From positions 1 through 34,473 of IMG/VR virus record IMGVR_UViG_3300044612_000089: a DNA stretch of 34,473 bases. One strand, 5' to 3'. The notes below the pieces were generated by a model. That model was not told the DNA's origin and did not search any database. It worked only from the letters and a program-made list of their open reading frames with translations. Source of the DNA: a virus. Lineage: Duplodnaviria; Caudoviricetes. Positions 4,362-12,823 of this stretch are shown here, piece after piece; the stretch's first letter is position 1, and every line of letters starts with the position of its first letter. The translations under genes and the position numbers were made by a program.

Positions 4362-6161
4362 TTACTGACCTAGTAGTGACGGCATAAGTTCATAGAGTTT
4401 CTTACGCTGTTCTTCGTCTGCTAGTAGTCCTAATGGTAGCACACCAGCAAGAATGTCTGCTTCGTTTCTACGCATTGGGTCAAAGGCAGCGAATCTACTT
4501 CTAACTTGGCTAGGCTCTAACAGTACATAACCAGTCTGGTCTGCAAACTCTGTGTATGGCGAGCCTTCTTTTGCTCTAATCATTAACGAGTCATAGCCTT
4601 GCTCTTTAAGCCTTTGACGATATGGCTCAACATCAGAGACTCTTGGAACTTCTGTTGCACCAAGTGCTTTATTGGTTGACAGATTACTGGCTGTTCTAGC
4701 CATTTGCTCAAATGATGTTGTTTTTGGGTTTTCCATGCGTAACAGCAATGGATAGATAGCACCTTGGCTTCCTGAGTACATTCCTGCACCCAATTCATCA
4801 GGTCTATCAGATGCCCATATTCCCATCTGGTCAATGGATGGCTTACGACCGACAATCTCAGTAGAAGCTAGACGATTAAATGCCTGAATGTCGCCTAGTT
4901 TGCGACCATCTTCAGCTTCCCAGACTGTTGTTCCATGATAAGCAGGAACATTGTGACCCATAGCCTCTGCCCTCATCTCAGGCGTATTGTCTTTAGGAAG
5001 TCCTAGACCACCTTCCTCAACAGGCAATGCAGCATTTCTTTGGGCTTTATCTAGTGCTTCTTGTCTTGGTGCTGATTTTTTAGGCAATTCGTCAAGTAGA
5101 CTTCTTGAAAAACCAAAGTCTAGCTTTTTAGGCAAACTTGCATCTAATTCACTAATTGGCACATCATAAGAACTCAATGGGAAAAGTTTACGCCTTTCTT
5201 CCATTGATAGATTTCTTCTTGCTTGAACAGCACGAGCCTCTGCTTCTCCTGCCGCCCTTAAATATCTTTGAAAGTCTTTTTCATCACCAGATATAAATCC
5301 AGAGCCAGCCGCCATACCTTCACGATTCTGGACTTGGTGTTGCATCTCATGGACTAAAGCAGACTTAATTTCTTCGTCTGTTGGGCCATAAGCCTCAATA
5401 AACCTACCTTCATCACCATATTCAGCAGAACCTGCTGTTTTAGGTTTTATCCCAATTTCAGTATTGACTTTCTTTAAGAAAGGATAAGCATCATATAACT
5501 CTGGATGTGCCATTACTCGTGAGGCATTTCCTTCTGTTACAGGTAAAAATATAGGATTACCTTCTCGGTCTAAACCTATGTTTTCACTTCTTAATTCAAT
5601 GTTTTGGTCACTTATTTCTTGTCGCCACTTACCATCTGGGCTTTTAAAAGTACCAGTTTTCTCCCAAATTGCTTCAGCAGATTCACCCTTTTTTTCTAAT
5701 TTCTTGGCTAACTCAGCAGCATCCTTATCCCATGCTCTTGACTTAGAACCAATGAAAATTTTACTTGTAGTGCCTTGCGCTAAATCTTGAAGCAGTCCAG
5801 CAGGTAAACCACCACGCTCCATAATCTGTGGTACTACTCTTTCAGCATAACGCTCACCTGCACGACCAACAGCCATAGCCGCCCTATTTGCACCTGATGC
5901 TACTGGCACTAACAAAGGTGCGGCTTGACCCAACAAACCTAGAGCAAACGCTGGTTCTGCGGCTTTTCTAATCTTTTCGTAATCAGGATTTAGAACACTA
6001 AACCCCATCTGGTCAGGAGCAGTTCCTAACAAACCTTGGACAATTGCATAAGTGCGAGGGTCTGCCAATGTGTTGACATCTCTCTGTCCTGCCAAGGCTC
6101 TAGCCCTAGCACCTTGACGCTGTATGTTTGGATTACCAAAAAATGCGCCAAGTTCAGCCAT
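4362..6161 (-). CDS. Polyvalent protein: LPD23-like/zincin domain plus ADP-ribosyltransferase-like (ART-PolyVal) domain
   Basis: IWEKTG..KSPDGKWRQEISD, HPELYDAYP, HEMQH (HExxH) and GEAEARAVQAR; then AYHGT...AGMY...IYPLLLRMENP...GYDSL...PSQVRSRFAAFDP. Confidence 0.75.
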   Translation of the reverse strand: MAELGAFFGNPNIQRQGARARALAGQRDVNTLADPRTYAIVQGLLGTAPDQMGFSVLNPDYEKIRKAAEPAFALGLLGQAAPLLVPVASGANRAAMAVGRAGERYAERVVPQIMERGGLPAGLLQDLAQGTTSKIFIGSKSRAWDKDAAELAKKLEKKGESAEAIWEKTGTFKSPDGKWRQEISDQNIELRSENIGLDREGNPIFLPVTEGNASRVMAHPELYDAYPFLKKVNTEIGIKPKTAGSAEYGDEGRFIEAYGPTDEEIKSALVHEMQHQVQNREGMAAGSGFISGDEKDFQRYLRAAGEAEARAVQARRNLSMEERRKLFPLSSYDVPISELDASLPKKLDFGFSRSLLDELPKKSAPRQEALDKAQRNAALPVEEGGLGLPKDNTPEMRAEAMGHNVPAYHGTTVWEAEDGRKLGDIQAFNRLASTEIVGRKPSIDQMGIWASDRPDELGAGMYSGSQGAIYPLLLRMENPKTTSFEQMARTASNLSTNKALGATEVPRVSDVEPYRQRLKEQGYDSLMIRAKEGSPYTEFADQTGYVLLEPSQVRSRFAAFDPMRRNEADILAGVLPLGLLADEEQRKKLYELMPSLLGQ

Positions 6162-7381: not shown

Positions 7382-7639
7382 CTATCCTATCAACTTTCTC
7401 AGGGTTTCGTTTAAAACTGACATTTCTGTGTGTTTATAAACTGACCAGATTCTTGCTTGTCCATGAATTCCATTATGGCTACCCTGATGGCAGTCCTTAC
7501 ATAGCGGAATACAAAGATACTGCTGATGCTGCTCAATATGGTGAGCATCTGATGGCCCTGACTGACCACAGACCCCACAAGGCATCTCTTTAACCCTTGC
7601 AAGGTGTAGTCTTTCTTTATTGCTGAACCTGTTGTTCAT
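7382..7639 (-). CDS. Ref/DUF968-like small HNH nuclease
   Basis: MNNRFSNKERLHLARVKEMPCGVCG...DAHH...IPLCKDCHQG..GIHG. Confidence 0.75.
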   Translation of the reverse strand: MNNRFSNKERLHLARVKEMPCGVCGQSGPSDAHHIEQHQQYLCIPLCKDCHQGSHNGIHGQARIWSVYKHTEMSVLNETLRKLIG

Positions 7640-8105
7640 TTTGGAACTTTTGTAGTAAAAATGACCAAACAGCACCACCAGCAACTTTGGCTGAAAATTG
7701 AAGTGCAACAATTTCAGGCATCAAAACACCAAAGGCAATAGTTGGGAAAAGCAAAGAGTCAACGGCAGCACCAGCAGTATTTGAGTAATTTGCTCGTTTT
7801 ATCCAAGTTCCTCTGCTTTTGAAAAATACTGCCCAATCAACCAAAGACGCTACCAAGAACGAAACCGCAGAAGCTACTGCAATCATTCCAGCGGCAGGGT
7901 TTAGCAAATAGGTTAAAGCACCTGTTCCCAATATCAAACCTCCCATTTGCCATGTTTTAAGTCTTACATGAAGCCAATCTCTAAGTGTTAGATCAAGACC
8001 TATTAAGAAAAAAGCATTTAATGGACTAATTGCTGGCCCAAATGTAGCTACTAAAAGGTTTGCGGCAACCATTGCCACCGCATATGTAATTAAAGCAAAA
8101 ATCAT
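7617..8105 (-). CDS. yhhQ: VUT/YhhQ-family membrane protein (queuosine-precursor preQ0/preQ1 transporter-like)
   Basis: About 5-6 TM helices; AANLLV, LDLTLRDWLH, IAVASAVSFLVASLVDWAVF and SNTAGAAVDSLLFPTIAFG match Vut_1 patterns. ATGA-coupled to the upstream gene. Confidence 0.85.
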   Translation of the reverse strand: MIFALITYAVAMVAANLLVATFGPAISPLNAFFLIGLDLTLRDWLHVRLKTWQMGGLILGTGALTYLLNPAAGMIAVASAVSFLVASLVDWAVFFKSRGTWIKRANYSNTAGAAVDSLLFPTIAFGVLMPEIVALQFSAKVAGGAVWSFLLQKFQNEQQVQQ

Positions 8106-8842
8106 AAAAGTGTTTCCTGTTCCATTGGTTGATAAAAATTCCATTGAGATGGTGAATTAAACGATTCAATCCTTGACCTCATAACTTGCGCTCTGGCTTC
8201 CTTGGTTGGAGGTAGATAATTCCCGTGTTTCCAATGCACATCAATGCCAACATTCCTGCCAATATTTGTACTGTCTGCTGACGCAAATGGTAGTTTTGTA
8301 AAGATTGCAGGGTCTAGCATCCTTAAACCATGAAGTTTGCAAGCAGGTCTTCCCATGTCGTCACAAAGCACTCTCATGGCTTGGCTCATTTTGACCCACC
8401 AGTTTGGTGTGCCTACTGTAGAAAACTCGCCTGAACTCCCAATGCAAACCCTGACATATGTGTTTGCCAGTTGCTCGAGCCTTTCAAGAGATTCGTGCAT
8501 ATGCCAAACTGGTGCGCCAAACCATGTTGGCAATGGGCAATCTCTTAGCAAAGCATCATTGTCTGCCTCGTTGCCATCAATCACATCGGGGATAACTGCA
8601 AAGTCACACGATGGAACTTTCTTTAGATTTAAAGCCCAATCATAAAAAGGCTGCCAATCTGTAATTGGCTTTCCTGATCTCCAAGCAGAAAATGCCCCGT
8701 TATCAATTGCAAATGATTGAGCCACTTCAATGGCTATAGATAACTGGTCTGAATGGGCAAACGAAACAAACGCATGACCATTTTCAATAGCTTTAACAGC
8801 TACTGTCGCAGGAGTTATTGGGAGTCCATGATAATGAATCAT
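8102..8842 (-). CDS. dpdA: TGT-fold, DpdA-like 7-deazaguanine transglycosylase (divergent)
   Basis: IDNGAFS (cf. TGT DSGG[FY]), IPDVI, PVWH, LHGLRM, FASADST (catalytic Asp position); coupled to yhhQ. Confidence 0.7.
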   Translation of the reverse strand: MIHYHGLPITPATVAVKAIENGHAFVSFAHSDQLSIAIEVAQSFAIDNGAFSAWRSGKPITDWQPFYDWALNLKKVPSCDFAVIPDVIDGNEADNDALLRDCPLPTWFGAPVWHMHESLERLEQLANTYVRVCIGSSGEFSTVGTPNWWVKMSQAMRVLCDDMGRPACKLHGLRMLDPAIFTKLPFASADSTNIGRNVGIDVHWKHGNYLPPTKEARAQVMRSRIESFNSPSQWNFYQPMEQETLL

Positions 8843-10660: not shown

Positions 10661-11512
10661 TTAATCTCCACAGAAGCAAGAAATAGCTTCCTCATCTTTG
10701 TCAAACATATCGGTTTGCTCTGCTGCGTATTTATACATTTGTGCATAAGTAGGCCTGTCAATAGCAAAGAACTTCCCATCACCAGCGCATCTTTTTGAGG
10801 CTTCTTCCTCTTGTTTAATCCACCACAATGCTCTTTCTGGCTTTTCTTGAATAAGGCTGAGAATCTGTGCTTTAGGCTTCAACATACATAAATCACAGTT
10901 TCCATGCATTGTTTTGCCGTTGATGTTTGGTAGGCCTAAGTCAAAATCTTGCTTCTTCCAGAAGTTGCTTACATCTTTAGAAGAAATTCCATCTTGCGCT
11001 AAAGGCAAATGCACAGTCTCATGCTTACCCTCTGGGTTAGGGTTTGCCCTAAATTTGACTACTCGTTTAGGCTCATCAGCACGAATCCCTAGGAAAGACT
11101 CCCATTCCTCCCAACCAACAGACTTTAAATATCTGTAAAAAGTCCTAGTTTTTAGGTTAGCTGAACAGTATCTAGCCCTACCATTTGGTAACGCATTGTT
11201 GAAATGCTTAATGATCTGCTCAAAAGGCTCACCATTTCTGCTTGCTGTTTGGTAATCAACAACTTTAAAAGAGTGTTCACCATCAACCTCCACATATTCA
11301 AGCCAAGTAATTGGCACATTCCATTTTTGTGAGCAGTCATTAACAAACTTTAGGGTAGCTTCTTCTTCTTTGCCAGTATTAGCAAAGATCACTTTAGCTT
11401 CACTTGGTAGGCTCATCTGGTGAGCCAGTAGAACCTTGTAGAGCATAAAAGCAGAAGTCCTACCGCCAGAAAAACTAATGCAAGTCGGCTCTGTTATTTC
11501 GTAAGGATTCAC
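10661..11512 (-). CDS. PAPS-reductase-family / PP-loop (adenine nucleotide alpha-hydrolase) protein
   Basis: ISFSGGRTS PP-loop, FANTGKE, RYCSANLK, GIRADE, GNCDLC and terminal CFCGD. Confidence 0.85.
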   Translation of the reverse strand: MNPYEITEPTCISFSGGRTSAFMLYKVLLAHQMSLPSEAKVIFANTGKEEEATLKFVNDCSQKWNVPITWLEYVEVDGEHSFKVVDYQTASRNGEPFEQIIKHFNNALPNGRARYCSANLKTRTFYRYLKSVGWEEWESFLGIRADEPKRVVKFRANPNPEGKHETVHLPLAQDGISSKDVSNFWKKQDFDLGLPNINGKTMHGNCDLCMLKPKAQILSLIQEKPERALWWIKQEEEASKRCAGDGKFFAIDRPTYAQMYKYAAEQTDMFDKDEEAISCFCGD

Positions 11513-11984: not shown

Positions 11985-12078
11985 CAGTTAATTCCAATGC
12001 TTTGTTTATCAGGTGTAGAGGGTATGGGATACCTTCACGCACCTTGTCTAGTAGTTTCATAGCTTCATAGTGGCTCAC
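11959..12078 (-). CDS. Small hypothetical protein, 39 aa
   Basis: GTG immediately after the TAA of the MTase beta ORF: (M)SHYEAMKLLDKVREGIPYPLHLINKALELTGDLLSQDD. Confidence 0.5.
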   Translation of the reverse strand: MSHYEAMKLLDKVREGIPYPLHLINKALELTGDLLSQDD

Positions 12079-12823
12079 TTAAAATTCTCCATGCTGTTGC
12101 CGCCACTTCTGGAACTTGCCCATTTCCACAGGCTTTAACTCTGTCCAATCGAGAGGCCAACCCATCATCCACTCCGAGAAATTCGCTGGCAAATGTTTTC
12201 CAGTCATCAACCGATAAGCACTTGTTAGCTTCGCTCCAAACTCCGTGCCAGTTTTTTGACTTGTCCTCACAAATCTTTTGCCTGTGTAAGTTATGCCGTT
12301 TGTTTGACCAGTCATGTAGTCTGAGGCTACGGGAGTGGGCCACCAACCAAAATCGTTCCCTTCTGTGGGGTGCGCCAACGTAGTCTGCTCCCACAATACC
12401 CCATCTCGCATCAAACCCCAATTTGGAAAGGTCTGCAAGCACTCTGTCGAGTCCGTTATTAACGAGCATTGGGGAATTCTCCACAAAGACGAATTTTGGT
12501 CTAACTTCGCCAATAATCCTCCCCATCTCTTTCCATAATCCACTTCGCTCTCCGTCAAGGCCAGCCCCCCCCCCTGCGGCTGACAAGTCTTGGCATGGAA
12601 ATCCTCCAGATACAACATCAACAATTTCTCTCCAAGGTTTTCCGTCAAAGGTTTGAACGTCATCCCAAATTGGGAAAGGCGGGAGAAGTCCGTCATTTTG
12701 TCGGGCGCACAGTACGCTTGCTGGGTAGGCTTCCCATTCGACTGCACAAACTGTTCTCCAACCAAGGAGGTGTCCACCAAGGATGCCTCCACCAGCGCCT
12801 GCGAAAAGAGCCAACTCATTCAT
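12065..12823 (-). CDS. C5-cytosine DNA methyltransferase, alpha subunit (motifs I-VIII and X)
   Basis: LFAGAGG (I), GGFPCQD (IV, catalytic Cys), VENS (VI), PHRRERFW (VIII), ACGNGQVP (X); motif IX is not recognisable in this frame. Confidence 0.92.
   Translation of the reverse strand: MNELALFAGAGGGILGGHLLGWRTVCAVEWEAYPASVLCARQNDGLLPPFPIWDDVQTFDGKPWREIVDVVSGGFPCQDLSAAGGGAGLDGERSGLWKEMGRIIGEVRPKFVFVENSPMLVNNGLDRVLADLSKLGFDARWGIVGADYVGAPHRRERFWLVAHSRSLRLHDWSNKRHNLHRQKICEDKSKNWHGVWSEANKCLSVDDWKTFASEFLGVDDGLASRLDRVKACGNGQVPEVAATAWRILSEPL
12079..12819 (-). CDS. C5-cytosine DNA methyltransferase, beta subunit overprinted in the +1 frame (TRD-like region and motif IX)
   Basis: 246-codon open frame inside alpha; WPTPVASD and HLPANFSEWMMGWPLDWT (motif IX-like E..MG[FW]P..W), as in M.EcoHK31I-type enzymes. 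Confidence 0.75.
   Translation of the reverse strand: MSWLFSQALVEASLVDTSLVGEQFVQSNGKPTQQAYCAPDKMTDFSRLSQFGMTFKPLTENLGEKLLMLYLEDFHAKTCQPQGGGLALTESEVDYGKRWGGLLAKLDQNSSLWRIPQCSLITDSTECLQTFPNWGLMRDGVLWEQTTLAHPTEGNDFGWWPTPVASDYMTGQTNGITYTGKRFVRTSQKTGTEFGAKLTSAYRLMTGKHLPANFSEWMMGWPLDWTELKPVEMGKFQKWRQQHGEF
12565..12574 (-). repeat. G10 homopolymer inside both MTase frames
   Basis: ccag-CCCCCCCCCC-tgc on the + strand. Confidence 0.9.

Follow-up and report, generated by a model that had tools for sequence, protein, structure and literature searches.

The window, i.e. the whole stretch of DNA analysed here (34,473 nucleotides), is a podovirus-like genome of 34 kb and is complete (terminal repeat of 127 nt; direct terminal repeats, 100%). 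One strand carries the gene of a compact, putative DpdA-type transglycosylase, followed directly by the gene of a short membrane protein. The features of this locus are listed below.

8102..8842, minus strand: compact putative DpdA-type transglycosylase, 246 aa, predicted (beta/alpha)8 barrel, no zinc site
8702..8704, minus strand: Asp47, predicted general acid/base (equivalent to S. Montevideo DpdA D95), role assigned after PMC10164549
8273..8275, minus strand: Asp190, predicted nucleophile on strand 8 (equivalent to DpdA D256 as judged from strand order)
8105..8119, minus strand: C-terminal QETLL on a disordered tail, resembling a beta-clamp-binding motif and fitting Q-x-x-[LM]-[FL]
8102..8105, minus strand: ATGA stop/start overlap, read from the sequence; identical junction in 55 of 55 direct pairs
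7617..8105, minus strand: short Vut_1/YhhQ (COG1738)-family membrane protein, 162 aa; over the Pfam Vut_1 cut-off, matching phrog_4899

Gene arrangement and genomic context

The TGA of the enzyme ORF shares the sequence ATGA with the ATG of the transporter ORF at 8105-8102, and the transporter frame remains open for 13 codons further upstream (175-aa call). The ORF upstream of the enzyme is joined by an ATGA overlap as well, and the HNH-like ORF downstream overlaps by 23 nt. Because neighbouring ORFs overlap too, gene overlap alone proves little, and evidence for a unit comes from the conserved pairing described below. A preliminary description of this DNA had reported a 246-aa protein with TGT motifs, without a CxCxxC site and with a TGA/ATG overlap with its neighbour, and the sequence agrees on each point; the enzyme holds the motifs IDNGAFS, IPDVI, PVWH, LHGL and SADST.

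By capsid and terminase, the nearest cultured relative is the Methylophilales phage Venkman (57% and 62%, respectively). Half or more of the sequence words of the genome are present in 14 of 22 listed metagenome runs, one of which is possibly the source sample; the matching metagenomes stem from lake, freshwater, subsurface and drinking water. Neither a clamp gene was found nor a polymerase recognised in the genome. Rfam gave no match in it, and thus no known preQ1 riboswitch.

Several other genes of the window deserve mention. On the same strand as a short C5 methyltransferase of 252 aa (12065-12823, minus strand), and overlapping it fully in a different frame, lies a 246-aa ORF (12079-12819), which matches phrog_1008 and phrog_26627. 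Its product may be a subunit read from an alternate frame, like that of M.EcoHK31I, or the ORF may be a library artefact. A polyvalent-type protein of 599 aa (4362-6161, minus strand) with an LPD23 and a weak ART-PolyVal domain occurs near 4 of 80 related loci only. Furthermore, a PAPS-reductase/SspD-like PP-loop protein (10661-11512, minus strand) lies 1.8 kb upstream and does not regularly accompany the cassette. A role as a hidden amidating partner was rejected, because the gene is found near just 20 of the 80 loci, in varying positions, and has no match in three of four other long cassette-carrying genomes.

Fold, active site and tail of the enzyme

The enzyme matches phrog_887 (E 6e-68), and 7,775 of the 7,999 candidates scored are its relatives. 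A profile of the enzyme family aligns with the DpdA of phage CAjan (probability 98.8%, E 6e-17). Sequence and profile searches of the PDB returned no match, and Pfam, NCBIfam and PADLOC give the enzyme no name, Pfam also missing the DpdA proteins of CAjan, MED16 and 7-11. The predicted structure is an eight-stranded barrel with a pLDDT of 94.9. Ranks 1 to 4 among 48,161 chains were taken by archaeal TGT (arcTGT, Z 15.5; rmsd 3.5 over 229 aligned residues), Cap10 (15.5), DpdA (13.9) and TGT (13.5), with an aldolase next at Z 13.4, which ties with DpdA and TGT. The best Foldseek TM-score, 0.64, was likewise to Cap10; a ranking by Foldseek E-value, in which unrelated TIM barrels came first, was discarded. 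The TGT/DpdA fold suggested in the preliminary description therefore stood as far as the barrel and its top matches are concerned, whereas the comparison of the family profile with the single sequence of E. coli TGT gave no alignment. Taken together, sequence and model support a placement of the enzyme in the TGT/DpdA transglycosylase superfamily.

Among 103 aligned rows of the family, D47, D86, H114 and H171 are each kept in 102, D190 in 98, and F or Y at position 51 in 101. In the model, D47, D86, H114, H171 and D190 sit on strands 3, 4, 5, 7 and 8, the strands that bear the catalytic and base-reading residues of DpdA and Cap10. The mapping onto D95, F99, D130, H181 and D256 of DpdA (PMC10164549) follows strand order and not superposition. 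In alignments, Asp47 falls on the DSG of E. coli TGT and of CAjan DpdA and Asp190 on the CDS of CAjan DpdA; D86 pairs with a Ser in the pairwise alignment with CAjan. The enzyme apparently possesses a full catalytic set of three active-site Asp, a stacking Phe and base-reading His/Gln. The zinc subdomain CxCxxC...H, present in E. coli TGT, is missing from all 103 rows. This is usual among phage DpdAs: those of CAjan, MED16 and 7-11 likewise have no CxCxxC and the enzyme of phage 9g reportedly keeps two of the four zinc ligands. The locus does not resemble a bacterial Dpd system: PADLOC gave no hit among the seven proteins around it, the DpdB and DpdC Pfam families are absent from the 60 ORF translations, and the zinc motif is lacking.

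The enzyme ends in MEQETLL, and its residues 243-246 have a pLDDT under 50. QETLL fits the clamp consensus Q-phi-x-[LM]-(x)-[FL] except for the non-aliphatic position 2 (reviewed in PMC11139829). Such a pattern occurs in 18 of 81 representative enzyme tails (the 81 of 150 retained as full-length), compared with 7 of 1223 internal windows and 7 of 805 tails of control ORFs (0.6-0.9%), and with at most five in 200 shuffles. A broader pattern is found in 30 of the 81 representatives, in 97 of 117 close homologues and in none of 119 transporter tails; both patterns were picked after viewing the tails, and 51 of the 81 representatives do not have even the broad one. The tail is also missing from the enzymes of MED16 and 7-11. 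A complex prediction for residues 212-246 with a betaproteobacterial beta clamp reached a score of 0.11 (mark 0.32), which weighs neither for nor against binding. The sequence of the tail suggests that the enzyme acts on replicating DNA and not on tRNA. A literature search joining DpdA, clamp and deazaguanine returned nothing on clamp-tailed DpdAs among titles and the beginnings of abstracts.

The paired transporter and the mobility of the cassette

The 162-aa partner passes the Pfam model Vut_1 with 38.7 bits at a cut-off of 27.2, which bears out its earlier assignment to the YhhQ family. Its matches to the NCBIfam YhhQ/QPTR models are weak and far under the cut-offs, as is expected for a short subfamily. 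Alignment gives 24% identity with E. coli YhhQ and 22% with the putative transporter of CAjan. The model is all-helical and of moderate confidence (pLDDT 72), a crude hydropathy scan marks three segments both in this protein and in E. coli YhhQ, and a structural search with the model gave nothing above Z 7.6. Bacterial yhhQ normally serves tRNA queuosine salvage, according to the literature consulted; the COG1738/YhhQ family is described as heterogeneous, with no universal residues, and its cargoes may differ. From family membership, the membrane protein is predicted to import a 7-deazaguanine precursor. In the literature consulted, a demonstrated role of a phage yhhQ was not found.

In 72 of 80 close viral enzyme loci the transporter is kept while the flanking genes change. 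The 72 comprise 55 direct ATGA pairs and 17 loci with a gene of about 80 aa in between; of the others, seven have the ~80-aa gene and no transporter and one ends at a contig end. At all 80 loci found via the transporter, the enzyme lies no more than 2.5 kb away, this set overlapping heavily with the enzyme-found loci, so that the two are not independent. The proposal of a real two-gene module is borne out by the conserved pairing. In prokaryote genomes the transporter adjoins the enzyme at 18 of 62 loci, in either gene order, and cultured phages that carry the pair are AB3P2, PEAT2, Phc, LHE71, Phleasolo and Tbat1_6, with AB3P2 the closest of them at 64%. Purifying selection acts on both genes, with a median dN/dS of 0.033 for the enzyme (80 pairs) and of 0.124 for the transporter (63 of the 72 loci, with gapped, short and saturated pairs dropped).

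Neither cassette gene was detected in 26 records chosen for length from 80 capsid relatives, in a search whose positive controls worked, and none of six near-complete capsid relatives carries either one. Furthermore, enzymes that are 93-96% identical occur in phages with a terminase that either has no match or shares only 34% identity. The cassette is a genuine mobile accessory two-gene unit, of a kind already catalogued. We estimate its presence in about 800 IMG/VR stretches, and it is abundant in freshwater phages. One database protein (P0445) is a 409-aa in-frame fusion of enzyme and transporter, which is possibly a sequence error, since the junction (equivalent to window positions 8105-8145) lies at a T run in a single contig; with the transporter frame open upstream, slippage over the T run could also create such a fusion.

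The ~80-aa gene, with Cys-Pro near its start, follows the enzyme in 24 of the 80 viral loci (e.g. L020:1878-2117 and L014:6738-6983), adjoins it on either side in 14 of 62 genome loci and is also found in the phages Epa33 and Mae-JY30. It has no Pfam name and no relative in the window genome. In Solirubrobacterales genomes (L141:3459-4705 and related loci) the pair occurs in reverse order and without the tail, and its neighbours look, by eye, conjugative and not phage-like.

Proposed function and relation to known systems

Six-frame searches of the complete genome gave no match to QueC, QueD/PTPS, FolE, QueF or radical-SAM (QueE) at E<=1, while each search picked up 10-14 of its 14 control genomes; the absence of synthesis genes noted in the preliminary description is therefore confirmed. 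QueC is found in 5 of 18 genomes that have enzyme and transporter versus 26 of 32 without the transporter, a comparison covering 50 of the 62 prokaryote-genome loci. This contrast stems from ten related Solirubrobacterales and from small contigs that may be mis-binned, and a Fisher p of 0.0003 was rejected, the genomes being non-independent. The proteobacterial carriers of the pair encode QueC themselves (3 of 3). One Nitrosomonadales carrier belongs to a family in which 57 of 61 genomes have QueC, a family that need not be that of the phage host. When CAjan loses queC or folE, preQ0 from the host still enters its DNA, at a 12-fold lower level, and the DNA becomes cuttable; deletion of yhhQ has no effect in the presence of the synthesis genes (PMC7544227). 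Transporter-based salvage of precursor is plausible, though it need not be essential. The suggested dependence on community metabolites finds no support, given the QueC of the proteobacterial carriers and the dispensable yhhQ of CAjan.

The two tested relatives that we found in the literature consulted, MED16 and 7-11, have dADG at 0.02-0.13% of their guanines: 354 per million nt in MED16 virion DNA, or 0.13% of G (PMC8306585), and 50 per million nt in that of 7-11. MED16 DNA is cut by EcoRI, EcoRV, HaeIII, BamHI and others; of the enzymes with G-containing sites that were assayed, only two Dam-sensitive ones are blocked (PMC8306585). The dADG of both phages could be host-made, because no dpdA knockout of either was found in the literature consulted, and the low levels may not transfer to the enzyme of the window, because in a quick tree the MED16 and 7-11 enzymes form a separate branch and they have no tail. 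In the window, 6-mer palindromes containing G have an observed/expected ratio of 0.35, compared with 0.33-0.39 in six relatives without the cassette; four other cassette carriers of different lineages show 0.42-0.60. As a test this is weak, given that CAjan (0.69) and MED16 (0.67) are alike and that a recent gain of the cassette would hide relaxation. CCGG, CGCG, CCWGG, AAGCTT, CCATGG, TGCGCA and TGGCCA never occur in the window, and no G context spared from avoidance, as a clue to a target motif, emerged. GATC, as a separate observation, is nil or almost nil in three capsid relatives. The earlier proposal of hypermodification with restriction protection thus lacks support, given trace levels in relatives, cuttable MED16 DNA and site avoidance that is not relaxed.

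We consider it moderately probable that the locus is a mobile cassette in which the DpdA-family enzyme exchanges a small, site-limited share of the guanines in new phage DNA while the YhhQ-family protein tops up the precursor. DNA base exchange as such is likely. Like their counterparts in TGT and bacterial DpdA, Asp190 would attack the deoxyribose and Asp47 would serve as acid/base. The inserted base would likely be preQ0, recovered as dPreQ0 or dADG; an enzyme for the conversion of dPreQ0 to dADG is not recognisable in the genome. The tail may dock on the beta clamp of the host, tying base exchange to replication, the host clamp being the candidate partner because neither a clamp nor a recognised polymerase is encoded by the phage. 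Most of the precursor would come from the queuosine pathway of the host, with the transporter adding salvage where the host makes little or none. The gain for the phage is probably narrow, i.e. confined to particular host nucleases or hosts, and not a genome-wide restriction shielding.

Different readings have to be weighed against this one. The transporter might instead lift the precursor limit, so that a clamp-tethered enzyme modifies many guanines and restriction shielding depends on precursor from other microbes. This appears unlikely to us: supply does limit modification in the CAjan mutants (PMC7544227), the low-level relatives MED16 and 7-11 have neither the tail nor, in their annotated flanks, the transporter, and QueC is rarer in genomes with the pair; however, palindromes are avoided as in the cassette-less relatives, sites such as CCGG, CGCG and CCWGG are absent, and the QueC contrast stems from related Solirubrobacterales and doubtful bins, with QueC in all three proteobacterial carriers. 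Quite improbable, in our view, is a counter-defence in which the pair drains, exports or binds the CDG, ADG or preQ0 needed by type IV CBASS or Qat, with trace dADG as a by-product. Cap10 ties as the best structural match, shares pocket and catalytic pair with the enzyme and is found with a bound 7-amido-7-deazaguanine adduct (bioRxiv 2025.04.06.647259), and the genes are strongly conserved although trace modification brought no restriction benefit in MED16. Against this, Cap10 is only 10% identical and ties with archaeal TGT, the sequence links lead to DNA-modifying DpdAs, the clamp-like tail suggests DNA, and the literature consulted held no test of the idea.

An enzyme fed by host-made precursor, next to a membrane protein with another cargo or direction that is not needed for modification, would agree with the 44 of 62 prokaryote-genome loci without an adjacent transporter (some on short contigs), with the silent yhhQ deletion in CAjan and with phage mEp021 (L284:2408-3675), whose short transporter is coupled to a cytosine methyltransferase in a genome where no DpdA relative was found. 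This is highly improbable when set against the 80 of 80 close transporter loci that adjoin the enzyme, the in-frame fusion, and the recurrence of the pairing in both gene orders and with the different DpdA subfamily of phiLM21. We give hardly any weight to an action on tRNA, by which a phage TGT would alter host queuosine levels or codon use. The zinc subdomain, which TGTs are reported to use to dimerise, is missing, singleton phage DpdAs are described as clustering apart from TGTs, the DNA of relatives is modified, and the tail is clamp-like, even though the top structural matches include archaeal and bacterial TGTs and yhhQ serves tRNA in bacteria. The preliminary description had left a tRNA target open, which the DNA data of the relatives and the tail make unlikely. 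Beyond these readings, it is conceivable, though we would not expect it, that clamp-tailed DpdAs are replisome-riding editors, acting either as an importer-fed armour that is switched on by community precursor, the phage otherwise avoiding modification-dependent glycosylase defences, or as a 7-deazaguanine drain against type IV CBASS/Qat.

Trace exchange with a supplementary importer remains our preferred reading, and it bears on a puzzle open since 2019: the DpdA-only phages are the largest deazaguanine phage group, and their tested members, in the literature consulted, modify almost nothing. The cassette exists in three natural forms (enzyme with transporter, enzyme with the 80-aa gene, and all three), and cultured E. 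coli phages carry the pair, which makes the role of phage yhhQ directly testable. If it works, a two-gene, clamp-coupled base-exchange kit would be a handy tool for DNA labelling.

Among known systems, Cap10 of type IV CBASS (PDB 9ntn; bioRxiv 2025.04.06.647259) resembles the enzyme in its fold and pocket residues, but it binds a modified protein partner and works with a QueC-like Cap9, and the window has no such partners. S. Montevideo DpdABC (PDB 7ui4; PMC10164549) shares the TIM-barrel fold with matching conserved residues, but requires the DpdB ATPase and has a zinc site and DpdC, none of which was recognised in the window. CAjan DpdA1 is a homologous enzyme, and CAjan has a short yhhQ-like gene; in contrast to the window, CAjan encodes FolE, QueD, QueE and QueC and modifies about 30% of its G, with dPreQ0 placed at GA and GGC (PMC7544227), and its enzyme has 306 aa and is only 29% identical over 152 residues. 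The gene content of phiLM21, CDKM15 and eHP-6, tabulated with DpdA and YhhQ only (PMC6884629, Supplementary Data 1), is alike, for CDKM15 and eHP-6 by that table. In phiLM21 the two genes overlap in the same order, whereas its enzyme belongs to another subfamily (Pfam PF23859; 23% identity, E 1.2).

The preliminary description had placed the enzyme outside the known phage DpdAs, and this view has to be abandoned. It is 53.7% identical to gp54 of SPN3UB (YP_007011024), listed as a DpdA by Hutinet 2019 (PMC6884629, Supplementary Data 1), and 49-54% identical to the homologues of SPN3UB, BTP1, SfI and Athena1; BTP1, SfI, Athena1, PEAT2 and 7-11 are listed there with DpdA as well. The third group of that study, gamma-proteobacterial singletons, has DpdA without synthesis genes, its singleton DpdAs cluster apart from TGTs, and host preQ0 or its uptake was already proposed, with YhhQ noted in some phages (PMC6884629). 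By sequence, then, the enzyme represents no new class and belongs to the catalogued singleton phage DpdA subfamily. SPN3UB, BTP1, SfI, Athena1, 7-11 (YP_004782407; 31.7% identity) and MED16 (39%) fall into this same subfamily, with 32-54% identity over nearly the full length and no preQ0 synthesis genes. MED16 and 7-11, on their other branch, differ in having no clamp-like tail and no transporter in their annotated flanks, whereas the window has both.
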